From the NCBI RefSeq assembly GCF_988242995.1, contig NZ_OZ547043.1: DNA of 64,000 nucleotides. One strand, 5' to 3'. The translations under genes were made by a program, and so were the position numbers. Below the pieces are notes generated by a model that saw nothing but the letters and a program-made list of their open reading frames with translations, was not told where the DNA came from and ran no database searches. Of this stretch, positions 7,658 to 54,490 are shown one piece after another; positions within the stretch are counted from its first letter, which is position 1, and the number at the start of each line of letters is the position of its first letter.

Positions 7658-7660
7658 TCC

Positions 7661-12874: not shown

Positions 12875-12902
12875 TCAGAGACGGATGACAAACGCAAAGC
12901 AG

Positions 12903-14530: not shown

Positions 14531-14706
14531 GCTGTATTCCTTATTTGGACCATACAGAGAGAAAAACCGGTACAGATGAGGCTAAAAAACCGGATGCAGA
14601 TGCTGTTTTAACCTGTCTGTATGTTAAATAAAACTAATATTTGCATCTGTATTGTGAACTGCCTGAAGGTGGATGATGAAGCCTCTGAAAGATGAGGAGG
14701 CAGCAG

Positions 14707-18659: not shown

Positions 18660-18671
18660 AAAGGAATAAGG

Positions 18672-31239: not shown

Positions 31240-31439
31240 TGTAAGTTCCGTAAATTAAGCAGCGGCCCGCATGTTCGGGGCCGCAGAAGAAGAAATTGCC
31301 GAGGGTAATATACACAAAATCATTCAGATTGCATCAAGGCGGCAAGTGAGCGAATCCCCGGGAGCGTACAGAAGTACTTGACCGGGGTAAACGAGCGCAG
31401 CCAACGCAGAGGCAGCCTGAAGGATGAAGTGTATACGTG

Positions 31440-36054: not shown

Positions 36055-36060
36055 AATATC

Positions 36061-36091
36061 AGGCCGGATGCGGCTGCGCCTTATCCGGCCC
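36061..36091. repeat. REP element between mrr and yjiA
   Basis: AGGCCGGATGCGGCTGCGCCTTATCCGGCCC matches the REP consensus (GCCGGATGCGGCG...CCTTATCCGGCCTAC). Confidence 0.65.
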
Positions 36092-36099
36092 ATAACCCC

Positions 36100-37056: not shown

Positions 37057-37066
37057 GCTCTCTCCA

Positions 37067-37270
37067 TTAACAACAGCGCATACCGCCTTTACCATCGCCG
37101 CCGTAGCGCGCGTTCTGGCGTTCGCGGAAGAATTCTTCATAGCTCATGTACGGCTTGTCGGGATGGTTGGTCTTCATATGCTCGACGTAGTTGTCGTAGT
37201 CTGGAATGCCAATCAACATCTTCGCCGCCTGGCCGAGATATTTTTTTGCCTGTCCTAAGTTACCAAACAT
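37067..37270 (-). CDS. yjiX: DUF466-family small protein YjiX (67 aa)
   Basis: 67-aa ORF ([58 protein letters not shown]...), immediately downstream of btsT. Confidence 0.8.
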
Positions 37271-37319
37271 AGTTCACTCTGATAAGAACAAAGCCCCGCC
37301 GAAGCGGGGCTAAACACGG

Positions 37320-39470
37320 TTAGTGGTGCGAAGAGATCTTCACGCCGCCTTCCGGGATTGGAACGTACGGTGTTTCTTTGTCAGTACGTTTGTCGCTGTT
37401 ACGCACCGCAAGCCAGGTTTTGAAACCGTAGAAGATGATGCTGTACACCACAATCAGGAACAGAATACTCAGGCCTGCGTTGGTGTAGTTGTTCACAACG
37501 ATGTGGTTCATGTTGGCAATCTGCTGCGCCGTCAGGTCAGTACCGTTAGCAATCTTCTCTTTGTACTGGCTTGCCATGTAGAAGAAGCCTTCCATCTGCG
37601 GGTTGGTGCTGAACAGTTTCAGACCCAGCGCCCAGGTGGTGCAGATAAGCAGCCATACAGCCGGAACAACAGTTACCCAGATGTATTGGGTGCGCTTCAT
37701 CTTAATCAGCACAACGGTGCCCAGTACCAGCGCTACGGCTGCCAGCATCTGGTTGGAAATACCGAACAGCGGCCACAGGCTCTTAACGCCGCCCAGCGGA
37801 TCGACCACGCCCTGATACAGCAGGTAGCCCCACAGACCCACACAGCCCGCAGTACCGATGATACCGGCAACCAGAGAGTCGGTTTTTTTCAGGAACGGGA
37901 TGAAGTTACCCAGCAGGTCTTGCAGCATAAAGCGGCCAGAACGGGTACCCGCATCCAGCGCGGTCAGGATGAACAGGGCTTCGAACAGAATACCGAAGTG
38001 ATACCAGAAGCCCATGTCAGCCATCGGCAGCACTTTGTGGAACACGTGAGCGATACCTACCGCCAGCGTTGGCGCACCACCTGCACGGTTCAGGACAGAA
38101 GGCTCACCAATGTCTTTCGCGGTTTGCAGGATCTGCTCTGGCGAAATCACGAAGCCCCAGGAGCTGACGGTCGCCGCCGCGTGTGCGGTAACGTCTTTCA
38201 GCTGCGCCATGATGATCGGCGCATTCTCGCCACCCATTTCATGCAGGTTAGGCATGGTAATGCCAAGGCCAGCAGGCGGGGTGTTCATCGCGAAGTAAAG
38301 ACCCGGTTCGATGATGGACGCAGCAACCAGCGCCATAATCGCCACGAAGGACTCCATCAGCATTGCGCCGTAGCCAATGAAACGCGCGTCGGTTTCGTTA
38401 GCCAGCAGTTTCGGAGTCGTACCGGAAGAGATCAGCGCGTGGAAGCCAGATACCGCACCACAGGCGATGGTGATGAACAGGAACGGGAACAGAGCGCCTT
38501 TCCACAGCGGGCCAGTACCGTCAATGTACTGGGTCATCGCAGGCATTTTCAGTTCCGGGTTCAGCACCACAATACCCAGCGCCAGGCCGACGATAACGCC
38601 GATTTTCAGGAAGGTTGCCAGATAGTCGCGCGGTGCGAGGATCAGCCACACCGGCAGCAGTGCGGAAACAAACGCATAGCCAATCAGCGCGAAGGTAATG
38701 GTGGTGTCTTTAAAGGTCAGTGCCGGACCCCAGTACGGATCGTGAGCAATCACGCCACCGAAGTAGATAGAGGCAACCAGCAGCACGATACCAATGACAG
38801 AGACTTCACCCACACGCCCCGGACGGATAAAGCGCATGTAGATACCCATAAACAGCGCAATCGGTACGGTTGAGCAAACGGTGAAAACACCCCACGGGCT
38901 TTCGGCCAGGGCTTTAACCACAATCAGCGCCAGGACGGCAAGGATGATGATCATGATTAAGAAACAGCCAAACAGCGCGATAGTCCCCGGTACTGGTCCC
39001 ATCTCTTCTTTGATCATCTCACCGAGAGATGCGCCGTTACGGCGAGAGGAGATAAACAGCACCATAAAGTCCTGTACCGCACCGGCCAGTACTACCCCCG
39101 CCAGCAGCCACAGCGTGCCAGGTAGGTAGCCCATCTGCGCGGCGAGAACCGGACCAACCAGCGGACCAGCACCGGCGATAGCGGCGAAGTGGTGACCAAA
39201 CAACACGTAACGGTTGGTCGGAACGTAGTTCAGACCGTCGTTGTTAATAACCGCAGGCGTCGCGCGCGTGGGGTCGAGTTTCATCACCTTCTGGGCGATA
39301 TACAAACTGTAGTAGCGATACGCCACCAGATACACCGACACAGAGGCGACCACGATCCACAGGGCGCTGACGTGCTCCCCCCGACGTAATGCAACTACCG
39401 CGAGGCAGAATGCACCGATGATTCCGAGAATCACCCAGGGTATGTGCTTGAATAGTTTTTTCGTATCCAT
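37320..39470 (-). CDS. btsT: CstA-family pyruvate/H+ symporter BtsT (YjiY)
   Basis: ORF-track 721 aa; start at ATG 39470 gives 716 aa (MDTKKLFKHIPWVILGIIGAF...); polytopic membrane protein. Confidence 0.9.
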   Translation of the reverse strand: MDTKKLFKHIPWVILGIIGAFCLAVVALRRGEHVSALWIVVASVSVYLVAYRYYSLYIAQKVMKLDPTRATPAVINNDGLNYVPTNRYVLFGHHFAAIAGAGPLVGPVLAAQMGYLPGTLWLLAGVVLAGAVQDFMVLFISSRRNGASLGEMIKEEMGPVPGTIALFGCFLIMIIILAVLALIVVKALAESPWGVFTVCSTVPIALFMGIYMRFIRPGRVGEVSVIGIVLLVASIYFGGVIAHDPYWGPALTFKDTTITFALIGYAFVSALLPVWLILAPRDYLATFLKIGVIVGLALGIVVLNPELKMPAMTQYIDGTGPLWKGALFPFLFITIACGAVSGFHALISSGTTPKLLANETDARFIGYGAMLMESFVAIMALVAASIIEPGLYFAMNTPPAGLGITMPNLHEMGGENAPIIMAQLKDVTAHAAATVSSWGFVISPEQILQTAKDIGEPSVLNRAGGAPTLAVGIAHVFHKVLPMADMGFWYHFGILFEALFILTALDAGTRSGRFMLQDLLGNFIPFLKKTDSLVAGIIGTAGCVGLWGYLLYQGVVDPLGGVKSLWPLFGISNQMLAAVALVLGTVVLIKMKRTQYIWVTVVPAVWLLICTTWALGLKLFSTNPQMEGFFYMASQYKEKIANGTDLTAQQIANMNHIVVNNYTNAGLSILFLIVVYSIIFYGFKTWLAVRNSDKRTDKETPYVPIPEGGVKISSHH

Positions 39471-39862
39471 AGTAAAACCTGGCATTTTACTCGTCGTCTT
39501 TTGGCTTACAGGTGCGGCAGCTGCGTTCGTTCACCCCTGTCACTTACTGTTGCAAGCTCCCGGGGATTCACTCACTTGCTGCCTTCCTGCAAACCAAAAT
39601 CCATAGAGTAATTTGTTAATCATAGGCCGAAGCCGTTCTAGGTTTGCGTTGCGTTTGAGGAGGTAAATTGACCGCTATCCTGCAGTGATGTTGCCAGAGA
39701 TACGCGCGCGTAAAGTAAGGTAAATAACTGAGTGGTTATTTTAGGGATGTAAGCGGTCAGGAATGGCGGTGAGCGGTTGGGCAAGAATTATTCATCGGGT
39801 GGATATGTGATTGAGATCACAATAAAAATGCCCCTTCGACGAATGCGTGAAGGGGCTGGAGC

Positions 39863-40375
39863 TTAAATCGCAGCTTCCATTTCCAGCATCACCGGATGGA
39901 AACGGCGTTTAAAGTAGATAAGTCCGTGACCTTCTGCACTGAGGATGATGTTTTTAATCTCCACCAGATACACCAGATGTGTGCCAATTGCCTGCACATC
40001 GCGGATCTCACCTTCAAGACTGGCCAGCGAACCTTTTAGCACCGGCTGCGCCAGCGGACCTTTTTGCCAGCATGAGAGGCTAAAACGCTCTTCCATCGCC
40101 ATGCCCGTCATGCCCGCGAAGTGGCGTGCCATCAGTTCCTGCTCATGGTTGAGGACGTTGACGCACAACTTGCCGTTGCCCTGAAAAACCGGGTTCATCG
40201 CACTGTTGGCGTTAATGCACACCATCAGCGATGGTGGTGTATCCGTGACCGAGCAGACGGCCGTTGCCGTAATCCCGCATTGTCCGGCGTCGCCCTCGGT
40301 GGTGATAATATTTACCGCTGCCGACAGGCTGGCCATCGCGTCACGAAAGCGCAGGCGTTGTTCATCTAATTGCAT
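39863..40375 (-). CDS. hpaC: 4-hydroxyphenylacetate 3-monooxygenase reductase component HpaC (flavin:NADH reductase)
   Basis: 170-aa ORF; flavin-reductase fold; directly downstream of hpaB. Confidence 0.9.
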   Translation of the reverse strand: MQLDEQRLRFRDAMASLSAAVNIITTEGDAGQCGITATAVCSVTDTPPSLMVCINANSAMNPVFQGNGKLCVNVLNHEQELMARHFAGMTGMAMEERFSLSCWQKGPLAQPVLKGSLASLEGEIRDVQAIGTHLVYLVEIKNIILSAEGHGLIYFKRRFHPVMLEMEAAI

Positions 40376-40392
40376 CTTAACCTCCTGCTGCG

Positions 40393-41955
40393 TTATTTCA
40401 GCAGCTTATCCAGCATGTTGATATCGTCGTTGTTGTGCAGGTGAGGCACAGTCCAGCCGTTCTGGTCGTATTCCGACAGGCAGCGATCAACCATCGCCAT
40501 CATCTTGTCCATATTGCCGGAGCTTTGTGCCTGGCGCAGACACTGCAGGCGAATCTCATCCTGGCTACCGGAGTAGTTGATTTCATACAGTTCGTGACGA
40601 CCACCAAACTCGCTGCCAATGGCATCCCACATCAGTTTGAGGATCTTGATGCGCTGGACGTGATCCATACCGTTCGAACCGCGCACATACTTCGCCAGAT
40701 ACTGGTCGATCTGCGGATTGTTCAGGTCACGGGCACTGGAAGGGAGATAGATCAGGCCACTGGTAACGTTGCGTTCGATAATGTTTTTGATCTTCGCGTA
40801 GGCCATTGGTGCCAGTACGCGATAGGTTTGCAGTGCGGCATGATCCGGTAAATAAGCCCCGTTGACCCACGGCGTCGCTTCAGAACACATCGAGTCACTC
40901 AATGCCCAGAAGGTGTTGCGCCACGCCACCACTTCACCGAGATCGGCCTGCACACCACGGAACTCCAGGGTGCCGGTACATTCGAGTGATTTTTTCAGCA
41001 GTGCCGTAATGAAGTCGAGTTTCACTGCCAGGCGCACACAGGCTTGCAGCGGATACATACGGGCGAAACCGCCTTCCATCGTCCAGCGACGGCAGCGATC
41101 AAAATCGCGGTAGATCAGCACGTTTTCCCATGGGATCAGCACGTTATCCATCACCAGAATCGCATCGTTCTCATCGAAGCGGCTGGAGAGCGGGTAGTCA
41201 TACGGTGAGCCGGTAGCACCCGCGACCATCTCATAAGAGGCGCGGGAGATTAATTTGACGCCATCGGCATCCATTGGCGCAACGAACATCAGTGCGAAGT
41301 CCGGGTTTTCGCCCATTACTTGTGCCGAGCCGAAGCCAATCATGTTGTAGTGAGTCAGCGCCGAGTTGGTGGCAACCACTTTCGCACCGCTGACGATAAT
41401 CCCGGCGTCAGTCTCTTTTTCCAGCTTGATGTAAACGTCTTTTACTTTATCGGTCGGCAAATGACGATCGATCGGTGGGTTAACAATCGCGTGGTTAAAG
41501 TAGAGGCCAGTTTCCTGAATACGGGTGTACCAGTTACGGGCGTTCTGCTCGAACTGACCGTAAAAGCCCGGATTCGCGCCCAGTGCGCAACCGAAAGCAG
41601 CTTTGTAGTCTGGGGTACGGCCCATCCAGCCATAGCTCAGGCGTGACCACTCAGCGATGGCGTCGCGTTGCTGGCGCAGGTCGTCGGCACTTTTCGCCAC
41701 GCGGAAGAATTTATGGGTATAGCCGCCGCTGCCGGTGTCGGTGTTCCAGCACAGAGAGTCCTGCATCTCCGGTTTGTGCAGTGCGTCGTACAGCTGGGCA
41801 ACAGACGCTGCCGCATTACGAAATGCCGGATGAGTGGTGACGTCTTTCACTCGCTCGCCATAGATATAGATCTCGCGACCATCCTGCAGGCTTTTCAGAT
41901 ACTCTTCCCCGGTGAACGGACGTTGGGTACTGGCGCGGAAATCTTCTGGTTTCAT
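40393..41955 (-). CDS. hpaB: 4-hydroxyphenylacetate 3-monooxygenase oxygenase component HpaB
   Basis: 520-aa ORF; two-component flavin-dependent monooxygenase family; matches HpaB length. Confidence 0.95.
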   Translation of the reverse strand: MKPEDFRASTQRPFTGEEYLKSLQDGREIYIYGERVKDVTTHPAFRNAAASVAQLYDALHKPEMQDSLCWNTDTGSGGYTHKFFRVAKSADDLRQQRDAIAEWSRLSYGWMGRTPDYKAAFGCALGANPGFYGQFEQNARNWYTRIQETGLYFNHAIVNPPIDRHLPTDKVKDVYIKLEKETDAGIIVSGAKVVATNSALTHYNMIGFGSAQVMGENPDFALMFVAPMDADGVKLISRASYEMVAGATGSPYDYPLSSRFDENDAILVMDNVLIPWENVLIYRDFDRCRRWTMEGGFARMYPLQACVRLAVKLDFITALLKKSLECTGTLEFRGVQADLGEVVAWRNTFWALSDSMCSEATPWVNGAYLPDHAALQTYRVLAPMAYAKIKNIIERNVTSGLIYLPSSARDLNNPQIDQYLAKYVRGSNGMDHVQRIKILKLMWDAIGSEFGGRHELYEINYSGSQDEIRLQCLRQAQSSGNMDKMMAMVDRCLSEYDQNGWTVPHLHNNDDINMLDKLLK

Positions 41956-42205
41956 GTCGACCTCTACAGTATTAATCGGAATACGATTGTTAATTTTGTG
42001 TGTTGTTTTTGTTATTCAATTGAAGCTTGCAGGGGCGATTACGGGAAGACACTTTTGGGACAATGGCTGGTACTTTTCAGGTCGGGTACGGTTTTGTGAT
42101 CGAGGTCGCTTTTAGCGATTTTTGACGTTACTAAATCCCCTTGCTCCAGGCGGAGAAAGGGGAATAGCAGGTGGTGCCTGGTTTCCCGTTAAGACTAAGG
42201 GATTT

Positions 42206-43096
42206 TCACGTCACAGGTACTTTTTTGGCACGATAAGCACTGGGCGAGCAACCGACTAAGCGATTAAAAAAGCGCGCAAAATAAGCTGGATCCTTAAAAC
42301 CGAGTTGCCAGGCAATATTGTTCACGGCGTTATCAGAAAACAGCAGCAGCCGCTTGGCTTCTCGCAGCTGCCTGTCGAAAATCAACCGTTTTGGCGGACG
42401 GTTGGCAAAGCGGCGGCAGATGTCCGTGAGGCGTGATTCGGTGATATGCAGTTCGTTAGCGTAATCCGGTACTGTCCAGTGCTGATGAAAATGGCTTTCA
42501 ATCAGCATATTAAAACGCTGGAACAGTTTTAATTCTCCGCGCATTCCGCTGGCGGCATGGTCGTCGAGTTTTGCGTTACGCAGCAGTAGGGTGAACACTG
42601 CCTGTGCCAGTAACGTCAGGGTGTGTTCCCGTCCAGGCAGTTGTTCTACCGATTCCCGCTCTATCAGTTGCCAATAGTGTTCCAGCGCCGCCAGTTCGTC
42701 GGGTTTATCTGCCAGTGACAGGCAAATCCCCGGCAGGCCGAAGGTTTCCCGAGTGCCCGGATAAAGAACTTCCAGCAGGGGCCAGATCAGATCTTCCCGT
42801 ACCGTCAACACATGACCGTCGGCGTCAGACTCCGTAATAAACGCATGAGGTACTGACGGCGGCGTCAGGACAAACAGGGGCGCTTCCACCGAGTAGCGAT
42901 GATCGTCAAGTTGTAGCTCAATCTGTCCGCTATTGAGGAAATGCATCTGAAAGTACTGTTCGTGGCGATGTGGCAGCATATGGCGGCCAAAAAATGCCGC
43001 CATGCGGGCGAACGACTGATAATGCACATCGTCCGTGCCCAGGCTTTCATCGTACTCTTTGCTGATATCAATATTGGCAATCTGACGGTCACACAT
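42206..43096 (-). CDS. hpaA: AraC/XylS-family activator HpaA of the hpaBC operon
   Basis: 296-aa ORF; C-terminal AraC-type HTH (NNIAWQLGFKDPAYFARFFNRLVGCSPSAYR); N-terminal cupin-like effector domain. Confidence 0.85.
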   Translation of the reverse strand: MCDRQIANIDISKEYDESLGTDDVHYQSFARMAAFFGRHMLPHRHEQYFQMHFLNSGQIELQLDDHRYSVEAPLFVLTPPSVPHAFITESDADGHVLTVREDLIWPLLEVLYPGTRETFGLPGICLSLADKPDELAALEHYWQLIERESVEQLPGREHTLTLLAQAVFTLLLRNAKLDDHAASGMRGELKLFQRFNMLIESHFHQHWTVPDYANELHITESRLTDICRRFANRPPKRLIFDRQLREAKRLLLFSDNAVNNIAWQLGFKDPAYFARFFNRLVGCSPSAYRAKKVPVT

Positions 43097-43105
43097 CGTC
43101 GTTCC

Positions 43106-44482
43106 TTACGGGGTCGCTCGCGGACGGGAGGACTGCATTGGAATCGCCCAGATAATCCCCGCACCAATCACCAGCAGCGCGGCAACAAACCACAATCCAC
43201 TGTTAAAGCTGCCGGTCAAATCTTTCAACCAGCCGATCATAAACGGACTTAACGCTGAACCAATGTTGCCAGTGGCGTTGATCACCGCAATACCGATCGC
43301 TCGTGCCCGCAGGCTGATGGACTGATCCGGTGTTGTCCAGAAAATCGCCATTGCGCTGAATGATCCGGTCGAAGCCATAATGATCCCCAGCATCTGGATC
43401 ATGTTGTGATCAGTTGCCGAAGCCAGTAACCAACCTGCGGCAGCGAACAAATAAGGAAGGGCGGTGTGATGCCTTCGTTCCTGGCGGCGATCTGAGTGAC
43501 GGCTCCAGTAGACCATCCCGAGAATGGTACAAATCTGCGGTACGGCGGCCAGCAGGCCGATGGTGATATTACTGCTGCCCTGATTAAAACTTTGCAGGAT
43601 CTGCGGTGTCCAGATGCTGATCGCACTAAGTGTGTTGGTCAGGCAGAAATACGCCAGGGTATACATCATCACCACCGGAGTGAAGATCTCCCGCCACATA
43701 CTGCGTTGTTGCATGGCGTGGTGGCTGATGGCTCCCTCTGGCTGAACCAGCGTCAGACGATCGTTATCCATCATCTCTTGCAGGCATTTTTTGTCTTCTT
43801 TCGTCAGCCACTTAGCTTTGTCCGGTGAGTCATCAAGCCAGAACCACACCATGACGCCGAGTAATACCGACGGGAAGCCTTCCAGCAAAAACAGCCACTG
43901 CCAGCCTTTTAATGCCATGACGCCATCCAGCGACAAAATGTAGCCGGAAACGATCGAGCCCAACGCTGTCGTTACCGGCATTGCTACCATAAACAAGGCG
44001 TTGGCACGGGCGCGGAAATAGGCCGGAAACCAGAAGGTTAAATACAGCAGAATACCAGGCAGAAAGCCGGCTTCGGTAATGCCAACCAGTATACGCAGTA
44101 CGTACAAGCTGGTGGGGCCAGTGGCAAACATGGTGGCAGTAGAGGCGATGCCCCAGAGCACCATGATGGTGGCGATCCAGCGCCGCGCACCGACAATACT
44201 CAGCATAATGTTGCTGGGAATGCCGAAGATGACATAAGCGGCATAGAACAGGGTGGTAGCGAGGCCAAACATGGTGGCGCTCAGACCGAGGTCGCGTCCC
44301 ATCGTGAGTCCGGCAAAGCCGATGTTGATGCGATCAAGGAACGAGAAGATAAACAGCACGAACAGAAAGACGATCAGGCGGCGAAACAGCTTCTTAATAA
44401 CCGCCTGTTGTCCGGCAGTCAGCGCTTTATGCTGATTCGCCGGATCGATACTCTCCGGTATGGCAGGTGAGGTGTCGCTCAT
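43106..44482 (-). CDS. hpaX: 4-hydroxyphenylacetate MFS transporter HpaX
   Basis: Start at internal ATG 44482 (GAGGAAG Shine-Dalgarno) gives 458 aa; MFS topology. Confidence 0.85.
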   Translation of the reverse strand: MSDTSPAIPESIDPANQHKALTAGQQAVIKKLFRRLIVFLFVLFIFSFLDRINIGFAGLTMGRDLGLSATMFGLATTLFYAAYVIFGIPSNIMLSIVGARRWIATIMVLWGIASTATMFATGPTSLYVLRILVGITEAGFLPGILLYLTFWFPAYFRARANALFMVAMPVTTALGSIVSGYILSLDGVMALKGWQWLFLLEGFPSVLLGVMVWFWLDDSPDKAKWLTKEDKKCLQEMMDNDRLTLVQPEGAISHHAMQQRSMWREIFTPVVMMYTLAYFCLTNTLSAISIWTPQILQSFNQGSSNITIGLLAAVPQICTILGMVYWSRHSDRRQERRHHTALPYLFAAAGWLLASATDHNMIQMLGIIMASTGSFSAMAIFWTTPDQSISLRARAIGIAVINATGNIGSALSPFMIGWLKDLTGSFNSGLWFVAALLVIGAGIIWAIPMQSSRPRATP

Positions 44483-44503
44483 TTTTCTTCCTCTAATGGG
44501 ATT

Positions 44504-44656
<153 letters not shown>

Positions 44657-45445
44657 TTAATACACGCCGGGCTTAACGGTCGTGGCCTGTGCGCCAAACC
44701 GTGCTGCCAGCGCTTCAGCGGCGCGGGCGAGCAGGGTGGTGTCAACGCCGACGGCGACAAACAGCGCGCCCAGTTCCAGATAGCGTTTTGCCAGTTGCTC
44801 ATTGGCGATCAGGATCCCCGGCGCTTTGCCCGCTTCGCGGATCTGCACGATCGCCTGCTCAATCGCGGCCTGTACTTCCGGGTGCTGTGGATTACCGGCA
44901 TAACCCATATCGGCGCTCAGATCCGCCGGGCCGATAAACACGCCGTCGACCCCTTCCACGTCCAGAATCTGCGGTAAGTTCTTCATTGCCTCACGCGTTT
45001 CGATCTGCACCAGCACGCACATTTGATCGTTGGCTTTTTGCAGGTAATCAGGAATACGATTCCAGCGCGAGGCTCGGGCCAGCGCACTGCCCACACCGCG
45101 AATACCGGCGGGGGGATAACGGGTGGCGCGTACCGCTTCACGGGCTTCGTCAGCGTTTTGTACCATCGGCACCAGCAAGGTTTGTGTGCCGACGTCCAGC
45201 AGTTGTTTGATTTGCACCGGATCGTTCCACGACGGACGTACCACCGGCTGGCTGGGGTAGGGCGCAATCGCCTGTAGCTGGGTGAGCACGGTTTGCACGT
45301 TATTCGGCGCGTGCTCACCGTCGATCAATAACCAGTCGAATCCTGCTCCGGCCAGTAACTCTGCGCTGTAGCTGCTACTCAGCCCCAGCCATAATCCGAT
45401 CTGCGGGCGGCCTGCTTTCAGCGCCGCTTTAAAACTGTTTTCCAT
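44657..45445 (-). CDS. hpaI: 2,4-dihydroxyhept-2-ene-1,7-dioate aldolase HpaI
   Basis: Start at internal ATG 45445 (AAGGAGAG Shine-Dalgarno) gives 262 aa ([21 protein letters not shown]...); HpcH/HpaI aldolase family; this removes the apparent overlap with hpaH. Confidence 0.85.
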
Positions 45446-45455
45446 CGTTCTCTCC

Positions 45456-46259
45456 TTAAACAAAGCGGCAGCTAATGGAGCCCATGTTGCCGTAATCGAC
45501 GTGGAAGGTGTCGCCCTTACGCGCCGGAACCGGGCGGGTGAACGAACCGCCGAGAATGATTTGCCCGGCTTCCAGTTGTACGTCATACGGTGCGAGTTTG
45601 TTCGCCAGCCAGGCCACGCCGTTTGCCGGATGATTCAGCACACCAGCGGCGACGCCGGTTTCTTCAATCACGCCATTGCGATACATCAGGGCGGAGATCC
45701 AACGTAGATCCAACTCATCGGGCTTAATGGGACGACCACCGAGGATCACCCCGGCATTGGCGGCGTTATCAGAAATGGTGTCGAACACTTTACGCGGGCG
45801 CTGGGTTTCCGGATCGATGTTGTGGCAGCGAGCGTCGATCAGCTCCAGCGCCGGGATCACATAGTCCGTGGCGTTGTAGACGTCGAACAGCGTGCAGTTT
45901 GGCCCACGCAGCGGTTTTGCCAGCACGAAAGCCAGCTCCACTTCAATGCGCGGCACGATAAAGCGATCGGTCGGGATATCGCTGCCATCGTGGAAGAACA
46001 TGTCATCCAGCAGGGCACCGTAATCCGGCTCGCTGATTTGTGAGCTGGCCTGCATCGCTTTCGAGGTCAGGCCGATTTTGTGGCCTTTCAGCGTGCGACC
46101 TTCGGCGATTTTCAGTCGAACCCATTCACGCTGCACCGCGTAAGCGTCTTCGATGGTGATCTCCGGGTAATCCAGCGAGATCGCGCGGATCTGTTCGCGC
46201 TGTTTTTCTGCCTGATCCAGACGCTGGGCGATCAGGGTGTGGGTGTGTTTATCGAACAT
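45456..46259 (-). CDS. hpaH: 2-oxo-hept-3-ene-1,7-dioate hydratase HpaH
   Basis: Start at internal ATG 46259 gives 267 aa ([20 protein letters not shown]...); hydratase/decarboxylase family. Confidence 0.85.
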
Positions 46260-46278
46260 AGCGATATCCTGTGGCATT

Positions 46279-46362
46279 GCCGGATGCGGCTGCGCCTTAT
46301 CCGGCCTACGGTGTACGGTTTGGGGTTTTGTAGGCCCGGTAAGCGCAGCGCCACCGGGCAAT
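46279..46362. repeat. REP pair between hpaH and hpaF
   Basis: GCCGGATGCGGCTGCGCCTTATCCGGCCTAC followed by GTAGGCCCGGTAAGCGCAGCGCCACCGGGCAAT. Confidence 0.65.
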
Positions 46363-46369
46363 CTGCGCG

Positions 46370-46750
46370 CTACTTAAACAATGCGTGCACGTTGTTTTGT
46401 TTAAAATTCAGCGTCGGATGCAGCTCTTCAATCTCAAACGACAACGCCAGCAGGCGGCTCTCCATCAGGGCGGCGAAGTGCGTTTTAATCAGTTCAAACA
46501 GCATTTCACCCGCCTGCTGACGGCTTTCCAGGCTGCGACCTGCGCCGATTTTCAACGTCATATGCACGAAGGCATAATCACGCTGCCCGTCGGCCATCTG
46601 CCAGGTATCGACCCAATGCACGCGGCTGCGAATACCCGCCAGCGGAAAAATACCCGTGGCTGCCAGCGTCGGATTCACTTTGGCGAACAACCCCGGCAGG
46701 TCGGCTTCTTCGCGGATGTTGTCACTGCATTCAACGATAAAGTGCGGCAT
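46370..46750 (-). CDS. hpaF: 5-carboxymethyl-2-hydroxymuconate isomerase HpaF
   Basis: 126-aa ORF ([22 protein letters not shown]...); TAG stop. Confidence 0.85.
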
Positions 46751-46759
46751 AAAACGTCC

Positions 46760-47611
46760 TTACGCGGGAAGCGGGAAAACAGCGTTAACCTGACCGGTGC
46801 CAGAGCTTGGGAATAGCTCGGTGATAAACTCCACCTTGCCGTCGTATTTATCCCAGCCGAGCATCCCCAGCAGCATCACCGTGTCGTGCATATTGCCTTC
46901 GCCGTAGCAGTAGTCGGCGTACTCCGGCAGCATATTGCAGAACTCTTTGAACTGGCCTTCGCGCCACAGCTTCACCACGCGCTCATCCATCTGGCGGTCG
47001 AACTCGCGGGTGTAGCTGTTCATCCCTTCTTCCGCTCGCTGATCGTCAATAAAGCGGTGCGATAACGAACCGCTGGCAAGGACCGCCACGGTGCCGTCGT
47101 ACTGTTCGATCGCTTTCAGAATCGCCTCGCCCAGCTTGCGGCTGTCGGCAAAATCGTGAACAGTGCAGAAAGCTGAAATGGAAACCACTTTGAAGTGCTT
47201 GTCTTCATTCATGTAGCGCATTGGCACCAGCGTGCCGTATTCCAGTTTCAGGCTGGGAATGTTGTGCGCTTTTGCCCGCACGCCGAGCTTTAAGGCTTCA
47301 TCGGCAATAAGCTGCCCCAACTCCGGGTTGCCCTCGTAGTTGTAGGTCATATCGCGGATAAAATGCGGCAGCTCGTTGCTGGTGTAGACGCCTTCAAAAT
47401 GGTCTGCACAGTTGATGTGATAAGCACTGTTGACCAGCCAGTGGGTATCGAAAACGATAATGGTATCGACGCCCATTTCCCGGCAACGCTTGCTGATCTC
47501 TTTATGCCCGTCGATCGCGCCCTGGCGGCAACCGTGGTTTTTCCCTGGCAGTTCAGAGAGATACATCGACGGTACGTGCGTGATCTTGGCGGCTAACGCT
47601 AACTTACCCAT
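46760..47611 (-). CDS. hpaD: 3,4-dihydroxyphenylacetate (homoprotocatechuate) 2,3-dioxygenase HpaD
   Basis: 283-aa ORF; extradiol dioxygenase family; synteny inside the hpa meta-cleavage operon. Confidence 0.9.
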   Translation of the reverse strand: MGKLALAAKITHVPSMYLSELPGKNHGCRQGAIDGHKEISKRCREMGVDTIIVFDTHWLVNSAYHINCADHFEGVYTSNELPHFIRDMTYNYEGNPELGQLIADEALKLGVRAKAHNIPSLKLEYGTLVPMRYMNEDKHFKVVSISAFCTVHDFADSRKLGEAILKAIEQYDGTVAVLASGSLSHRFIDDQRAEEGMNSYTREFDRQMDERVVKLWREGQFKEFCNMLPEYADYCYGEGNMHDTVMLLGMLGWDKYDGKVEFITELFPSSGTGQVNAVFPLPA

Positions 47612-47612
47612 A

Positions 47613-49079
47613 TCAGACTCCCCATTTCGGAATTGGATGGTCGCCCATGGAAATGCAGACGTTCTTCATTTCCGCGAACACTTCGAAGCTGTACTCACCG
47701 CCTTCACGCCCGGTGCCGGAGGCTTTTACGCCGCCAAATGGCTGGCGCAGGTCACGCACGTTCTGGGTGTTGACGAACACCATGCCAGCTTCAATGCCAC
47801 GCGCCAGGCGTAACACTTTGCTGACATCCTGTGTCCAGATGTACGACGCGAGGCCGTACTCCACGTCGTTTGCCAGACGTAAGCCTTCGGCTTCGTCTTT
47901 AAACGGCAGCAGGCAGGCGACCGGCCCGAAAATCTCTTCCTGGGCGACTCGCATACGGTTATCAACGTCTGCCAGCACGGTTGGGCGCAGGAAGTTGCCG
48001 CCTTTCAGGTGCGCAGGCAGGTCGGACGGTTTATCCGGGCCGCCCGCCAGCAGGGTTGCGCCTTCTTCAATGCCGAGACGGATATAGCCGGAGACTTTTT
48101 CCCAGTGCTGCTGGCTGATAAGCGCGCCAACCTGGGTATTCGGATCGTTCGGATCGCCCACGCGCAGACGGTTGGCGCGTTCGGCAAAGCGTTTAACGAA
48201 TTCCGGGTAGATGCTTTGCTGAATAAAGATGCGCGAACCGGCGGTGCAGCGTTCGCCGTTGATCGAGAAGATGGTGAACAGGGCGGCGTCCAGCGCGCGT
48301 TCAATATCAGCATCTTCAAAAATCAGCACCGGCGATTTACCGCCCAGTTCCATGGAGTATTTTTTCAGCCCGGCGTTTTTCATGATGTTGCGCCCGGTCG
48401 CCGTACCGCCGGTGAACGACACGGCACGCACGTCATGATGACGGACCAGCGCATCGCCTGCGGTTGCGCCGTAGCCCTGTACCACGTTCAGCACGCCCGC
48501 CGGAATACCAGCTTCCAGCGCCAGCTCACCCAGGCGGTCGGCGGTCAGCGGGGAGAGTTCCGACATTTTCAGTACCGCGGTATTGCCCAGCGCCAGACAC
48601 GGCGCGACCTTCCAGGTGGCGGTCATAAACGGCACGTTCCACGGTGACACCAGTGCACAAACGCCTACCGGCTGCACCAGCGTGTAGTTGAGCATCTTGT
48701 CGTCGACCGGATAAGTCTTGCCGTTCATCTGCTGGCAGACTTCCGCGAAAAATTCAAAGTTGTGAGAAGCGCGTGGGATCAACACATTTTTGGTCTGATG
48801 GATCGGCAGGCCCGTGTCCGCGGTTTCCATCGCGGCGATCTCCGGCACGTTCTGGTCGATCAGATCGCCCAGACGGCGCATCAGGCGCGCGCGCTCTTTC
48901 ATCGGCAGATTGGCCCATTTCGGGAACGCCTCTTTCGCTGCCGCTACCGCCTGATTGATCTCCGCTTCACCGCCGGAGGCCACATCCGCCAGCACTTCAC
49001 CCGTTGCCGGATTGGTAGTCTGGAAGTAGTCGTTACCTGCAACATTTTTACCGTTGATCCAATGATTTACTTTTTTCAT
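47613..49079 (-). CDS. hpaE: 5-carboxymethyl-2-hydroxymuconate semialdehyde dehydrogenase HpaE
   Basis: 488-aa ORF; aldehyde dehydrogenase family with catalytic Cys/Glu regions; start overlaps the hpaG stop (ATGA). Confidence 0.9.
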   Translation of the reverse strand: MKKVNHWINGKNVAGNDYFQTTNPATGEVLADVASGGEAEINQAVAAAKEAFPKWANLPMKERARLMRRLGDLIDQNVPEIAAMETADTGLPIHQTKNVLIPRASHNFEFFAEVCQQMNGKTYPVDDKMLNYTLVQPVGVCALVSPWNVPFMTATWKVAPCLALGNTAVLKMSELSPLTADRLGELALEAGIPAGVLNVVQGYGATAGDALVRHHDVRAVSFTGGTATGRNIMKNAGLKKYSMELGGKSPVLIFEDADIERALDAALFTIFSINGERCTAGSRIFIQQSIYPEFVKRFAERANRLRVGDPNDPNTQVGALISQQHWEKVSGYIRLGIEEGATLLAGGPDKPSDLPAHLKGGNFLRPTVLADVDNRMRVAQEEIFGPVACLLPFKDEAEGLRLANDVEYGLASYIWTQDVSKVLRLARGIEAGMVFVNTQNVRDLRQPFGGVKASGTGREGGEYSFEVFAEMKNVCISMGDHPIPKWGV

Positions 49080-50365
49080 TTCGCTGTTTCCTCACTCACA
49101 ATTCGGTTCACCAGGCGGCCCACGCCTTCTACTTCCACCACCACTTCATCGCCAGGCACCACGTCAGATAAGCCTTTTGGTGTGCCGGTGGCGATCATGT
49201 CGCCCGGATTCAGGGTCATAAATTCGCTTAAGTAGGCGATCAGGAAGGACACGCTGAAGATCAGATCGGCGGTGGTGCCTTGCTGGCGTAACTCGCCGTT
49301 GACGAAGGTGCGAAGGGTCAGATTATGCGGGTCCGGGATCGCCTCTTTCGGCACGATGGTTGAAAGCATCGGCGTCAGTCCGTCGCGGCTTTTGACCCGC
49401 AGGTTAGGGCGGTAGTAGTTTTCCAGATAGTCGCGAATGGCGTAGTCGTTACACACGGTGTAGCCCGCGACATAATCCATGGCATCGGCTTCGCTGACGT
49501 TACGCGCCTGTTTGCCAATAACTACCACCAGCTCCGCTTCATAGTGCATGTATTCAATATTGTTTGGACGCACGGAGGTCTGGTTATCGCCAGTGAGGGT
49601 ATTTGGCGCTTTCAGGAACACCAGCGGTTCTTCCGGTGGCTTAAATTCCAGTTCGCTGGCGTGGTCGGCGTAGTTCAGGCCGAGGGCAAACAGCGTGCCG
49701 TGCGGGTGTGGCTGCGTTGGGAAGCTCTTGCGCGTGGTCACTTCACGTTCGTCCACTACCGGATTTTCCAGCGGCGGGAAACCTTCTGCGAGAACACGAA
49801 CGCGATCGCCTGGCTGTATTTCCACGCGCGCCTGTGGCGTGCCGAGCAGAATGGCGTCGCCTGGATTCAGCGTGGCAAATTCGCTCAGGGCGCTCAGCAA
49901 CTGCGCGGCGTTACGTTGTAAATCGGCGGTATTCCAGTGATCGGCAGGACGCCCGTTGATCTCGGTATAGATGGTCAGATTATCGACATTGCTGAGAGCC
50001 ACGGTTTCGCCAATGGGGCAGAATCCATCACGACATTTTGCTTTGATTGCCGGGCGGTAAAAGCTCTCTTCCGGCAGGCTGACGTCGTTAGCCAGCGCAT
50101 ATCCGGCGATGTACTCTGCCGCATCTTCTTCACGTACTTTCGTCGCCGTTTTTCCCACAATCAGCGCAACAGTCGCACCGCTCAGTACCTTTTCACCCTG
50201 TGGAAAGGGAATCGGTTCACCGCAACCAATCACCGTATTGCGCGGTTTAATAAACCAGACCGCAGTTTTAGGCGGGGCTTTGTAGGGGGATTGCTGGAAC
50301 GCTTCCTGCCATGCATCAAGTTGGCTGCGATGGTTCAACGCTACGGCGAAGATAGTGCCTTTCAT
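49076..50365 (-). CDS. hpaG: Bifunctional isomerase/decarboxylase HpaG (duplicated FAH-fold)
   Basis: Start at ATG 50365 (GAGGAG Shine-Dalgarno) gives 429 aa (MKGTIFAVALNHRSQLDAWQ...); internally duplicated sequence. Confidence 0.9.
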   Translation of the reverse strand: MKGTIFAVALNHRSQLDAWQEAFQQSPYKAPPKTAVWFIKPRNTVIGCGEPIPFPQGEKVLSGATVALIVGKTATKVREEDAAEYIAGYALANDVSLPEESFYRPAIKAKCRDGFCPIGETVALSNVDNLTIYTEINGRPADHWNTADLQRNAAQLLSALSEFATLNPGDAILLGTPQARVEIQPGDRVRVLAEGFPPLENPVVDEREVTTRKSFPTQPHPHGTLFALGLNYADHASELEFKPPEEPLVFLKAPNTLTGDNQTSVRPNNIEYMHYEAELVVVIGKQARNVSEADAMDYVAGYTVCNDYAIRDYLENYYRPNLRVKSRDGLTPMLSTIVPKEAIPDPHNLTLRTFVNGELRQQGTTADLIFSVSFLIAYLSEFMTLNPGDMIATGTPKGLSDVVPGDEVVVEVEGVGRLVNRIVSEETAK

Positions 50366-50390
50366 TACCACTCCTCGGATTCGATCATTT

Positions 50391-50414
50391 TAATCATTAA
50401 TATGTTAATGATTA
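50391..50414. promoter_or_regulatory. Perfect inverted repeat in the hpaG-hpaR intergenic region; candidate HpaR operator
   Basis: TAATCATTAA-tatg-TTAATGATTA (10-bp arms, 4-bp spacer) about 26 nt upstream of the hpaG start; a related half-site (ATTAATGATT) lies near the hpaR start. Confidence 0.5.
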
Positions 50415-50636
50415 CTTTTATTCCCGATTGCGTAGTTTGGCAAAAGTAAGTGATGTAAATGTGATCTAATTAACAAACTATTTACATTTAAAGATAATAA
50501 AATATTAAATATCAGCAAGTTAACAAAACATGCTCAATTTTGATAAAATGAAGAATTGCAGGGGCAGCGCAGTCCCGGTAACGTGATGATTAACTGTTTC
50601 TATATTAATGATTTTGAATTTTTCAGGGGAAAGATA

Positions 50637-51083
50637 ATGCACGACTCTCTAACCATTGCGTTGCTCCAGGCGCGAGAAGCGGCGATGAGTTATTTTCGCC
50701 CAATCGTTAAACGGCATAATTTGACTGAGCAACAGTGGCGCATCGTGCGTATTCTGGCGGAAAGCCCATCAATGGATTTTCACGATCTGGCGTATCGCGC
50801 CTGCATTTTGCGCCCAAGCCTGACCGGGATCCTTACGCGGATGGAACGCGACGGTTTAGTGTTGCGATTAAAGCCGATCAATGATCAGCGGAAGCTCTAT
50901 ATCTCGCTAACCAAAGAGGGGCAGGCGCTGTATAACCGCGCTCAGACACAGATTGAAGAAGCCTATCGGCAGATTGAAGCTCAGTTTACTGCCGAGAAAA
51001 TGCAACAGTTAACCCATCTGTTAGAGGAATTTATTGCTCTGGGCAATTCCCGACAAGAAGCCATCCCGGGCGATAATGAATAA
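50637..51083 (+). CDS. hpaR: MarR-family repressor HpaR of the hpa meta operon
   Basis: Start at ATG 50637 (AGGGGAAAG Shine-Dalgarno) gives 148 aa (MHDSLTIALLQAREAAMSYFRPIVKRHNLTEQQWRIVRILAESP...); MarR winged HTH. Confidence 0.85.
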   Translation: MHDSLTIALLQAREAAMSYFRPIVKRHNLTEQQWRIVRILAESPSMDFHDLAYRACILRPSLTGILTRMERDGLVLRLKPINDQRKLYISLTKEGQALYNRAQTQIEEAYRQIEAQFTAEKMQQLTHLLEEFIALGNSRQEAIPGDNE

Positions 51084-51144
51084 CTTTTTAGTATCTGATA
51101 ACCAGCGCCTGGTTTTTCCATGGATGGCGGGTTACACCTTTTCA

Positions 51145-51171
51145 TAAAGTTTTTGCTTTCCAGGCCGAAAA
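51145..51171 (+). promoter_or_regulatory. Sigma-28 (FliA) class III flagellar/chemotaxis promoter of tsr
   Basis: TAAAGTTT, 11-nt spacer, GCCGAAAA: a near-perfect match to the sigma-28 consensus TAAAGTTT-N11-GCCGATAA, about 30 nt upstream of the tsr ATG. Confidence 0.65.
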
Positions 51172-51201
51172 TCTTGCATCGGTCCACAGGAAAGAGAAAC
51201 C

Positions 51202-52866
51202 ATGTTAAAACGTATCAAGATCGTGACCAGCTTACTGCTGGTTTTGGCCGTTTTTGGCCTTTTACAACTGACATCAGGCGGTCTGTTCTTTAATGCCTTA
51301 AAGAATGACAAAGAAAATTTCACTGTTTTACAAACCATTCGCCAGCAGCAATCCACGCTGAATGGCAGCTGGGTCGCGTTGTTGCAGACGCGTAACACCC
51401 TCAACCGCGCGGGTATCCGCTACATGATGGATCAGAATAATATTGGTAGCGGTTCAACCGTTGCTGAGCTGATGCAGAGTGCCAGTATTTCGCTGAAACA
51501 GGCGGAAAAAAACTGGGCGGATTACGAAGCGTTGCCGCGTGACCCGCGTCAGAGCACCGCCGCAGCGGCAGAGATCAAACGTAATTACGATATTTATCAC
51601 AATGCGCTGGCGGAGCTGATCCAACTGTTAGGTGCAGGCAAAATCAACGAGTTCTTTGATCAGCCGACCCAGGGATATCAAGACGGTTTCGAGAAGCAGT
51701 ATGTGGCTTACATGGAGCAAAACGATCGGCTCTATGATATCGCCGTCAGCGATAACAATGCCTCCTACAGCCAGGCGATGTGGATTCTGGTGGGCGTGAT
51801 GATCGTCGTACTGGCGGTCATCTTCGCCGTCTGGTTCGGTATTAAAGCCTCGCTGGTAGCGCCAATGAATCGCCTGATTGACAGCATCCGTCATATTGCA
51901 GGCGGCGATCTGGTGAAACCGATTGAGGTGGATGGCTCTAATGAGATGGGGCAACTGGCAGAGAGTTTGCGCCATATGCAGGGAGAGCTGATGCGTACCG
52001 TCGGTGATGTGCGCAACGGGGCCAATGCCATCTATAGCGGTGCCAGCGAAATCGCTACCGGCAATAACGATCTCTCTTCGCGCACCGAGCAACAGGCCGC
52101 TTCGCTGGAAGAGACGGCAGCCAGCATGGAGCAACTGACCGCAACGGTGAAACAGAACGCCGAGAATGCGCGCCAGGCCAGCCATCTGGCGTTAAGTGCT
52201 TCTGAAACGGCGCAACGCGGCGGCAAAGTGGTAGATAACGTGGTGCAGACTATGCGCGATATCTCCACCAGTTCGCAGAAAATCGCCGATATTATCAGCG
52301 TAATTGACGGCATTGCCTTCCAGACCAATATTCTGGCTTTGAACGCGGCGGTTGAAGCAGCGCGTGCGGGTGAGCAAGGGCGCGGTTTTGCGGTGGTTGC
52401 GGGAGAAGTGCGTAATCTGGCCCAGCGTAGCGCTCAGGCGGCTCGTGAAATTAAAAGCCTGATTGAAGACTCGGTGGGGAAAGTGGATGTTGGCTCTACG
52501 CTGGTCGAAAGCGCCGGGGAAACAATGGCGGAGATTGTCAGCGCCGTGACCCGCGTGACGGACATTATGGGCGAAATTGCTTCTGCTTCTGATGAGCAGA
52601 GCCGTGGTATCGATCAGGTTGGCTTAGCGGTTGCTGAGATGGACCGGGTAACTCAACAGAACGCCGCGCTGGTGGAAGAATCTGCCGCTGCCGCCGCCGC
52701 GCTGGAAGAGCAGGCCAGTCGCCTGACCGAAGCTGTGGCAGTGTTCCGGATTCAGCAACAGCAGCAACAGCAGCGTGAAACATCGGCTGTGGTAAAAACC
52801 GTGACGCCAGCTGCGCCGCGTAAAATGGCCGTGGCAGATAGCGAGGAGAACTGGGAAACATTTTAA
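51202..52866 (+). CDS. tsr: Serine chemoreceptor Tsr (methyl-accepting chemotaxis protein I)
   Basis: 554-aa ORF; two TM segments, HAMP, conserved MCP signalling domain, C-terminal NWETF pentapeptide; sigma-28 promoter upstream. Confidence 0.95.
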
Positions 52867-52877
52867 TCGCCATGAAA

Positions 52878-52907
52878 ATGCCCGATAAGCAAAATGTTAT
52901 CGGGCAT
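52878..52907. terminator. Stem-loop between convergent tsr and lgoT; possible bidirectional terminator
   Basis: 11-bp stem ATGCCCGATAA / TTATCGGGCAT with an 8-nt loop, 12 nt after the tsr stop and 8 nt after the lgoT stop. Confidence 0.5.
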
Positions 52908-52914
52908 AAGGAGA

Positions 52915-54276
52915 TTAATCTTTACGTGGGTCGTTGATCGGCTGACGAACCAGGAAGATGTACGCCAGTGCCCCCGCTGCGGTGACGCAACCGCAGATGA
53001 TTAGTGCCAGACGGAATGAGTGGGTGGTATCAACAATAAAACCAGTAATGATCGGCGCAAAAGAGGCGCAGATGAAGCTGGCAAAGTTCTGGATACTGCC
53101 CACCGACGCAGTCATGCGAGAAGCAACTGCGACGTGGATCAAGCCCCAGCAGGATGTTCCGGCAAAGTGAATACAGAACAGTGCCATGCCAATCAGCAGA
53201 ACCGCCGTCATGGATGTTGTCGCTTGTGGTACTATCAGCGTAAAGGCGGCAGAACAGAACATCCCGGCAATAATGCAGATCTTACGGCTTTTAATCGGAG
53301 CCATTCCCCCTTTGACCAGCCAGTCAGTAACGTAACCGTTGACCAGCATCCCGGCAGCCCCAAACAGGAAAGGGATAGCCGCCATCAACCCTGTGCTTTT
53401 TAAATCCAGGTTATAGGCTGTTTGCAGGTAACCAGGAAGCCAGGCCAGATACAGCCACGCAGTGTAGTTGATGCCACTGAATCCGAGCATCATTCCCCAC
53501 ATTGTACGGTTACGGAACAGGCTGCGCCATTCGGCAAAACTGAGCGGATCTCGGCGGGCATTGACGCTACCTGCATTGAGATAAGCTTGTTCAACGGCAG
53601 TCAGTTCTACGTGCTCGCGGTTGCGATAGAGCATATACCAGCCGATGGCGAGAAAAATCCCCAGTACACCAATGGTAATAAACATCCCGCGCCAGCCCAT
53701 CACCAGCATCATCGCCGCCAGAATCGGTGGGCTTACGGCAACGCCAATGGTAGAAGCTGCGTTGAAGAAGCCCATCGGGCGTCCGCGCTCTTTGATGTTG
53801 AACCAGTCGTTAATGACTTTTACACCGCATGGGTTCATCGGCGCTTCACCAATCCCCATACCGATACGCACCAACACGAACTGCGTAAAGTTGTGCACCA
53901 TGCCAGACATTGCCTGGAACAGTGACCAGAAGAACATCCCCAGTCCCAGCATCAGGCGTGGGCCTTTACGATCCAATAGTGGGCCGCAAGGAAGTTGCGC
54001 AATCCCGTAAGCGAGTGAAAACACGGAGAGCAAAGCGCCGATTTCGGTGGCACTTAATCCCAATTCTTCACGAATCGTTAAATTTGCTACCGACAGCGAA
54101 CTGCGGTCGAGATAATTGATTACCGCCGCAAAAAATAATAACAACATGGCGGTGGTTTGAATGCGTTTAATTCGGGTACTGCGTTGAACTAATCCATCTG
54201 GTGGCACGGGAATATCTGCCGACGAAGATGGAGTAAATGAAGAACGCGGATCGAGGGTGATATTTTCTTTTTCCAC
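52915..54276 (-). CDS. lgoT: MFS transporter LgoT (YjjL), probable L-galactonate/H+ symporter
   Basis: 453-aa ORF; MFS anion:cation symporter-like; synteny with lgoR and lgoD. Confidence 0.85.
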   Translation of the reverse strand: MEKENITLDPRSSFTPSSSADIPVPPDGLVQRSTRIKRIQTTAMLLLFFAAVINYLDRSSLSVANLTIREELGLSATEIGALLSVFSLAYGIAQLPCGPLLDRKGPRLMLGLGMFFWSLFQAMSGMVHNFTQFVLVRIGMGIGEAPMNPCGVKVINDWFNIKERGRPMGFFNAASTIGVAVSPPILAAMMLVMGWRGMFITIGVLGIFLAIGWYMLYRNREHVELTAVEQAYLNAGSVNARRDPLSFAEWRSLFRNRTMWGMMLGFSGINYTAWLYLAWLPGYLQTAYNLDLKSTGLMAAIPFLFGAAGMLVNGYVTDWLVKGGMAPIKSRKICIIAGMFCSAAFTLIVPQATTSMTAVLLIGMALFCIHFAGTSCWGLIHVAVASRMTASVGSIQNFASFICASFAPIITGFIVDTTHSFRLALIICGCVTAAGALAYIFLVRQPINDPRKD

Positions 54277-54490
54277 GCCGGACTCCTGTATTTATAATTT
54301 TAATTGTTTACGTAATTGTGAATTACGCAAGGTTGACATTAACGGCAGGTTAAAGTTTTAGGACTTTACTACCGCTCACAAAAAAATTTTTAGTCGACTG
54401 ATTGTGAGCATAGGTAAGCGGGAATTTCCCGGTATTTATCTTTTGATAAAACCGTGCACCCGCTAATAGTTTGCTGTTTTTAATCCGTAC

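Follow-up and report, generated by a model that had tools for sequence, protein, structure and literature searches.

A complete and apparently functional hpa catabolic cluster in a multi-allelic slot between btsT and tsr

A 64,000-nucleotide stretch of DNA (RefSeq assembly GCF_988242995.1, contig NZ_OZ547043.1), referred to here as the window, carries a complete hpa cluster, the genes for catabolism of 3- and 4-hydroxyphenylacetate (HPA), between the core genes btsT and tsr. We consider, with a probability of about 0.8, that this cluster is apparently functional, long-resident and non-mobile, and that it occupies a multi-allelic slot in the chromosome. Long residence is indicated by the orthologous position of the cluster in other genera, its co-divergence with btsT, an allelic diversity of up to about 3%, and a remnant of hpaC in an Escherichia that otherwise lacks the genes. 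The cluster itself is already known and is textbook Escherichia coli biology. The first-pass annotation of this DNA, made from the sequence alone, was correct in its finding, which was an ordinary one (a known catabolic cluster at a known position), and what had to be corrected in it were the boundaries, the evolutionary framing, and an unrecognised enterobacterial repetitive intergenic consensus (ERIC) element.

The map of open reading frames (ORFs) showed eleven intact genes in the btsT-tsr interval, hpaC, B, A, X, I, H, F, D, E and G on the minus strand and hpaR on the plus strand. Nearest to btsT lies the hpaBC operon (39863-41955), which specifies the two-component 4-HPA 3-monooxygenase and consists of hpaC, for the flavin reductase (39863-40375; NF012030, 385.6 bits), and hpaB, for the oxygenase (40393-41955; TIGR02310, 1109.6 bits). 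It is followed by hpaA (42206-43096), for the AraC-family activator of hpaBC (TIGR02297, 390.3 bits against a cut-off of 274.65), and by hpaX (43106-44482), for a 4-HPA permease of the major facilitator superfamily (TIGR02332, 893.7 bits), the start of which is the RefSeq start in E. coli ECC-1470. The homoprotocatechuate meta-cleavage operon hpaGEDFHI (44657-50365) comprises hpaI (44657-45445), hpaH (45456-46259), hpaF (46370-46750), hpaD (46760-47611), hpaE (47613-49079) and hpaG (49076-50365), each of the six scoring above its equivalog cut-off. Beyond an AT-rich divergent control region (50366-50636; GC 0.46) stands hpaR (50637-51083), for the MarR-family repressor of the meta operon (TIGR02337, 201.1 bits against a cut-off of 121.2). 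All eleven products exceeded the curated cut-off of their own NCBIfam equivalog model and aligned to it end to end. Positions 36113-54000 aligned with E. coli ECC-1470 without a gap and with 57 mismatches, and the RefSeq annotation of that genome gives the same eleven genes in the same organisation. The ORF map, the model scores and the ECC-1470 annotation thus agree with the gene content, the W/B/C-type organisation and the btsT-tsr position originally proposed, and frameshifts that might have been missed, or internal stops, were found neither in the translations nor in the gap-free alignment to the annotated genome.

Sequence conservation points to a working pathway. The hpa region was 99.7-99.8% identical to its best genome matches, with strain-level single-nucleotide polymorphisms only, and its promoter regions were 99.7% identical to those of many genomes. 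HpaG matched the crystallised HpcE (PDB 1GTT) at 427 of 429 positions, HpaB matched PDB 6QYH (residues 1-520) and PDB 6EB0 over its full length, and HpaI gave full-length matches to the solved E. coli structures PDB 2V5J and 4B5X. HpaB carries Arg379, as in BL21(DE3), the residue reported to permit use of 3-HPA besides 4-HPA (PMC7201708), and from the genotype and this residue the source strain is predicted to use both compounds. If the published pathway of E. coli W and C applies, HpaX would import 3- and 4-HPA, HpaBC would hydroxylate them to 3,4-dihydroxyphenylacetate, and HpaD, E, F, G, H and I would open the ring by extradiol cleavage and take the product on to pyruvate and succinic semialdehyde, with hpaBC activated by HpaA and the hpaG operon repressed by HpaR. 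A consensus scan for sigma-70-like promoters and terminators placed the three best promoter matches of the region within the hpaG/hpaR control region, its overall counts not being above shuffled expectation, and an Rfam scan of 36000-55000 returned no family at gathering score.

The hpa cluster of E. coli W was reportedly treated by Prieto, Diaz and Garcia in 1996, HpaBC is in wide use as a biocatalyst, and 3- and 4-HPA arise in the gut when tyrosine and flavonoids are broken down. The hpa cluster of E. coli W, the hpc genes of E. coli C and the hpa cluster of E. coli B (PMC7201708, PMC3446290) agree with the window in all eleven genes, in gene order and orientation and in the btsT (yjiY)-tsr site, and nothing substantive separates the window from them beyond strain-level polymorphisms. 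Strains B, C and W grow on HPA, while K-12 does not (PMC7201708). In K-12 MG1655 btsT adjoins tsr at a distance of 377 bp, and the only K-12 match to the hpa core was a 70-bp repetitive extragenic palindromic (REP) repeat, so that K-12 does not carry hpa at this site and the absence stated in the first-pass annotation was borne out. The intact cluster stands where K-12 is empty, and its presence marks the source strain as not K-12, as had been proposed. Our literature search did not find a paper that joins hpa, yjiY, tsr and K-12.

The limits of the cluster were set by BLAST of the K-12 btsT-tsr spacer against the window and by direct reading of the sequence. On the left the core flank is btsT (37320-39470, minus strand), for a pyruvate/H+ symporter of 716 amino acids, annotated as btsT in ECC-1470 and K-12, although the sole NCBIfam match of its product was the paralog model CstA (1012.8 bits, under the 1188-bit cut-off of that model). 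On the right it is tsr (51202-52866, plus strand), for the serine chemoreceptor (NF011615, 1225.3 bits; annotated tsr in both genomes). Homology to K-12 reached 39485, was absent over 39486-39615, returned at 39616-39776, was weak to 39821 and returned again at 51141, and the cluster-specific DNA therefore extends from about 39823 to 51140 (11.3 kb), K-12 having in its place an unrelated AT-rich spacer of 73-133 bp. The stretch at 39616-39821 (minus strand) is the btsT promoter region common to strains without hpa, being 93% identical to K-12 over 39616-39776 and 86% identical to strain EDL933 through 39822. It includes the direct repeats ACCGCT[C/T]A (39750-39757 and 39770-39777) and a CRP-type palindrome, TGTGAttgagaTCACA (39806-39821), all of them retained between btsT and tsr in 17 other species; from the published regulation of btsT (yjiY) we take the repeats and the palindrome to be putative BtsR and CRP sites. 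Directly after the CRP-type site comes the left edge of the cluster-specific DNA, formed by an intrinsic terminator hairpin 3' of hpaC, read from the sequence as GCCCCTTC...GAAGGGGC followed by a T-run (39830-39856, minus strand).

The right edge is a 57-bp cluster-specific spacer after hpaR (51084-51140), with homology to K-12, EDL933 and E. albertii returning at 51141-51144. It ends 4 nt before the -35 element of a tsr promoter, TAAAGTTT-N11-GCCGAAAA (51145-51171, plus strand), read from the sequence and presumably of the sigma-28 (FliA) type. This promoter is common to all alleles of the slot (K-12, EDL933, E. coli 2017-02-2CC and 17 other species), and it and the CRP-type palindrome were both conserved across 19 spacers. 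The cluster thus fits exactly into the interval between two core promoters, and the precise junctions are a modest addition to what was known. The short boundaries first given for the island were accordingly revised: the left one (39486-39862) is mostly not cluster, being made up of the ERIC element, the conserved btsT promoter and the hpaBC terminator, while the right one (51084-51201) holds as cluster-specific DNA to 51140 and from 51141 is tsr promoter and leader common to K-12.

By every test run the cluster is non-mobile. Every ORF of at least 80 codons between btsT and tsr was an hpa gene or lay inside one in another frame, and no integrase was among them; ARAGORN found no tRNA in the 64-kb window; and no direct repeats paired the two junctions, the sole candidate (D1) having 65% identity over 31 nt. 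On all three counts the absence of mobility features reported earlier was upheld. There was no anomaly of composition, with GC contents of 54.8% for hpa, 55.9% for btsT, 54.4% for tsr and 54.2% for yjiA, and E. coli REP units have accumulated within the cluster. Like classical tRNA-linked, integrase-bearing islands, it is a strain-variable 11-kb accessory block between conserved core genes, but it lacks their integrase, tRNA, direct repeats and compositional deviation, and it does not belong to that class.

The content of the slot was surveyed in 5426 complete E. coli genomes. The arrangement btsT-hpa-tsr was present in 2063 and a K-12-type empty junction in 2752, while 363 (O157:H7 and relatives) had an AT-rich 776-bp insert with a 180-aa ORF and 194 a five-gene D-amino-acid cluster, alone or together with a hydroxyproline cluster, these four contents covering 5372 of the genomes. 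The 8-kb hpa core was found in 2019 genomes at 97.1-100% identity, a divergence among E. coli hpa alleles of up to about 3%, and K-12-type empty alleles ranged in identity down to about 94%. In some genomes with the D-amino-acid cluster a 10-kb hydroxyproline cluster was also present, adjoining btsT. Elsewhere in the genus, Escherichia sp. E1V33 had the hydroxyproline cluster in the slot (locus 1-9650), E. albertii a K-12-type empty spacer along with the ERIC element and a tsr carrying an internal deletion, and Escherichia sp. MOD1-EC7003 retained the final 113 bp (3') of hpaC beside btsT, followed by a tripartite ATP-independent periplasmic (TRAP) transporter. The contents seen were therefore hpa, empty, the O157 insert, D-amino-acid, hydroxyproline plus D-amino-acid, and the TRAP transporter, and the break points of all these alleles lie at the same pair of promoter edges. 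The btsT-tsr slot is a multi-allelic hotspot with at least five alternative contents in Escherichia, and the empty state of K-12 is an old, widespread allele rather than a K-12-specific event. An old insertion or a deletion in the K-12 lineage had been suggested; an old event is upheld by these data, while a K-12-lineage deletion is too narrow, given the empty allele in 2752 of the 5426 genomes and in E. albertii. Among published avian isolates, hpaB occurs in phylogroups A, B1 and C and was absent from all B2 and G isolates tested (PMC12444784).

Some of these alleles were observed more closely. The hydroxyproline-type cluster of 10 kb comprises genes for a 4-hydroxyproline epimerase, flavin adenine dinucleotide (FAD) oxidoreductases, a dihydrodipicolinate synthase (DHDPS)-like protein, an aldehyde dehydrogenase, an APC permease and an AraC regulator, and it was stacked with the D-amino-acid cluster in E. 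coli LR-58-1 (locus 3889-19686). The insert of EDL933 (O157:H7; locus 3400-4175) has a GC content of 35%, and its 180-aa ORF gave only a sub-threshold Pfam match, to a TnsA-like N-terminal domain (E = 0.068). In E. albertii NBRC 107761 the internal deletion has left only the first ~340 bp and the last ~140 bp of tsr, with the K-12-type spacer and sigma-28 promoter retained (locus 9163-9563).

Clusters like that of the window occur well beyond Escherichia. The outgroups were taken from a BtsT scan with one genome per GTDB species and 10-kb flanks, giving 80 loci in which neighbouring genes were classed by tblastn. In 15 species hpaC-hpaE lay directly upstream of btsT in the order and orientation of E. 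coli: four of Raoultella, three of the Klebsiella oxytoca complex, three of Citrobacter, two of Enterobacter, one of Lelliottia and two of Pseudocitrobacter; a third Enterobacter locus was cut within hpaC. Gene order and position are thus those of the window in all six groups, and Enterobacter asburiae was collinear with it from btsT through hpa to tsr, while the right-hand neighbour of the cluster could differ, as in K. michiganensis, where hpaR was followed by a D-amino-acid cluster and tsr was absent, and in Pseudocitrobacter, where four genes lay between hpaR and tsr. Compared with the window, the hpa genes were about 80-88% identical in DNA once a divergent hpaX variant is excluded (hpaX being only about 70% identical in some species), a level equal to that of btsT and yjiA (81-88%). 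Pairwise DNA distances of hpa genes and btsT over 120 species pairs gave Pearson coefficients of 0.73-0.88, compared with 0.84 for the core neighbour yjiA, and the mean distances of hpa and core genes were similar. The description as an inserted island is consequently not the best one, as the same slot is used in at least six other genera and hpa has co-diverged with btsT and yjiA. Probably, hpa has been in the slot since before Escherichia split from Klebsiella, Enterobacter and Citrobacter, with hpa-less states arising by loss or replacement.

Two departures from the common pattern were seen among these species. In Pseudocitrobacter vendiensis and P. faecalis the segment hpaI-hpaE was 90-96% identical to E. 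coli at the DNA level, with HpaE protein 99-100% identical, while btsT, yjiA, hpaC, hpaA and hpaX were only 82-87% identical (btsT 86-87%), which has the look of a fairly recent exchange of hpaGEDFHI between genera. In K. michiganensis hpaG is split into two genes of 210 and 254 aa (locus 8611-10004), the E. coli product being a fused bifunctional enzyme of 429 aa.

The most serious alternative is that the empty slot is ancestral, and that a single early insertion of hpa was later spread between genera and E. coli phylogroups by homologous recombination through btsT and tsr. Spacers with the conserved promoter elements and without hpa exist in many genera and are as widespread as occupied ones, the K-12 spacer has no hpa remnant, and the contrast in Pseudocitrobacter between hpaI-hpaE and btsT shows that exchange occurs. 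Outside Pseudocitrobacter, however, the divergence of hpa equals that of its flanks, which calls for vertical inheritance or for transfers in which the flanks always moved with the cluster; the hpaC remnant in an hpa-less Escherichia species also speaks against an empty ancestor, and the empty spacers show no alignment from genus to genus, a pattern expected if the losses were independent. On balance we regard an empty ancestor as unlikely, at roughly a one-in-four prospect. Far less credible is a recent genomic island brought into an E. coli lineage by a mobile element: the cluster is present in only 38% of genomes and adjoins a hypervariable restriction (immigration control) region, but this account is contradicted by the absence of an integrase, a tRNA and direct repeats, by the flank-like GC content, the internal REP units and the allelic diversity of up to 3%, and by the orthologous position in other genera.

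A deletion specific to the K-12 lineage is just as improbable as a recent island. K-12 is indeed without the cluster, and loss from an hpa-bearing ancestor has been suggested in the literature (PMC7201708), but the identical empty junction in 2752 genomes, with alleles down to about 94% identity, and in E. albertii contradicts an event confined to K-12, as does the absence of hpaB from all the B2 and G avian isolates tested (PMC12444784). Nor is it at all likely that the cluster is present yet cryptic or non-functional in the source strain. Single substitutions can shift the substrate range, as does R379C in the HpaB of REL606 (PMC7201708), but here the genes have no frameshift or stop, the products are nearly identical to crystallised, active enzymes, Arg379 is present, and the promoter regions share 99.7% identity with those in many genomes.

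The preferred reading, of an old resident cluster in a multi-allelic slot, also has evidence to contend with. Direct adjacency of tsr and btsT, at a spacing of about 300-415 bp, is widespread in other genera, being found in Salmonella arizonae and diarizonae, many Citrobacter, Kosakonia, Phytobacter and others. For most of the other genera only the btsT side was seen, the loci ending about 10 kb upstream, and the species pairs behind the divergence correlations are not independent of each other. The two haplotypes of the btsT promoter were about equally distant from the outgroups and so pointed to no direction of change. BLAST and direct reading detected no remnant of the hpa ends in the K-12 spacer, which means that K-12 is no simple deletion derivative of an allele like that of the window. 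Function, finally, was read from the sequence, so that the cluster can be called apparently functional and no more. All of these points weigh against the reading favoured here. The comparison of the window with K-12 gave, in addition, no gradient of divergence toward the junctions of the kind that marks an old balanced polymorphism, since the coding flanks were 96-100% identical per 200 bp and only the promoter stretch, at 93%, was lower.

As to how the slot may work, hpa would fill a non-functional spacer between two outward-facing core promoters, that of btsT, putatively under CRP and BtsR control, and the putative sigma-28 promoter of tsr, and its contents would be lost, replaced and re-gained through deletion and homologous recombination via the conserved flanks. 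One allele bears on the mechanism: E. coli 2017-02-2CC is identical to the window up to 39839, a position within the hpaC terminator loop, and then continues with a second hairpin arm of its own and the D-amino-acid cluster (locus 6380-6440). This hybrid terminator suggests a deletion or recombination between two terminators that resembled each other in an ancestor with both hpa and the D-amino-acid cluster, although a composite btsT-hpa-D-amino-acid-tsr arrangement was not found in E. coli among the records inspected. We offer as a tentative proposal, somewhat less than evenly supported, that the slot, from the btsT CRP site to the tsr sigma-28 promoter, is a family-wide, mobility-gene-free cassette slot in which an ancestral composite of hpa, D-amino-acid and hydroxyproline modules has been differentially trimmed, some alleles perhaps having arisen by recombination within terminator hairpins that they share, with the presence/absence polymorphism persisting across species boundaries.

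Pan-genome studies of E. coli have described chromosomal hotspots, also called regions of genome plasticity, that lack mobility genes. The slot in the window is of the same kind, a single core interval with at least five contents that share the same outer break points, and it was not found as a described hotspot in the literature searched. It illustrates neatly how accessory genes can turn over without mobile elements, in an ancient hotspot that extends across the Enterobacteriaceae.

On the other side of yjiA the window differs from its closest match. The interval yjiS-yjiA (14872-36112) is an 'immigration control region' with yjiT, a gene for a 2114-aa DEAD/DEAH helicase, mcrCB, symE, hsdSMR and mrr, whereas in ECC-1470 its content is penicillin G acylase only. 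Collinearity of the window with ECC-1470, with penicillin G acylase beside yjiA, was considered and rejected on account of the mcrBC-hsdSMR-mrr restriction region. Since ECC-1470 is the best match for the hpa part and differs in this interval, the window is a mosaic of haplotypes with respect to sequenced strains.

Repeats were found both within and beside the cluster. Two REP units, of the bacterial interspersed mosaic element (BIME) type, lie in the hpaX-hpaI spacer (44541-44637) and a third in the hpaH-hpaF spacer (46293-46312); they were detected as repeat families D4 and D6. The stretch 44541-44637 matched every E. coli genome, K-12 included, at many places, and such units, present at about 21 places in the median genome, were the only part of the cluster to match genomes without hpa. 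Outside the cluster, in the 5' leader of btsT, an ERIC element (also termed an intergenic repeat unit, IRU) of 125 nt occupies 39487-39611 on the minus strand, between the btsT promoter and the start codon and 16 nt upstream of the latter. Its core, GTGAATCCCCGGGAGCTTGCA (39551-39571), has zero mismatches, and the element folds into a long imperfect hairpin (-61.7 kcal/mol, z = -6.6), ERIC repeats being imperfect palindromes of about 127 bp with a conserved central inverted repeat, dispersed through transcribed intergenic regions. The primer sequences ERIC1R and ERIC2 each matched the window at 19 of 22 bases when compared by eye. ERIC copies occurred at a median of 8 places per genome (5425 E. 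coli genomes); K-12 and EDL933 have none at the btsT leader, and E. coli ATCC 8739 has an identical copy. A copy of at least 95% identity was present in 2055 E. coli genomes, close to the number of hpa carriers (2063), and hpa-less E. albertii also has an ERIC at the btsT-leader site. A second match to the ERIC core, with two mismatches, lies at 31350-31370, just 3' of the end of hsdR.

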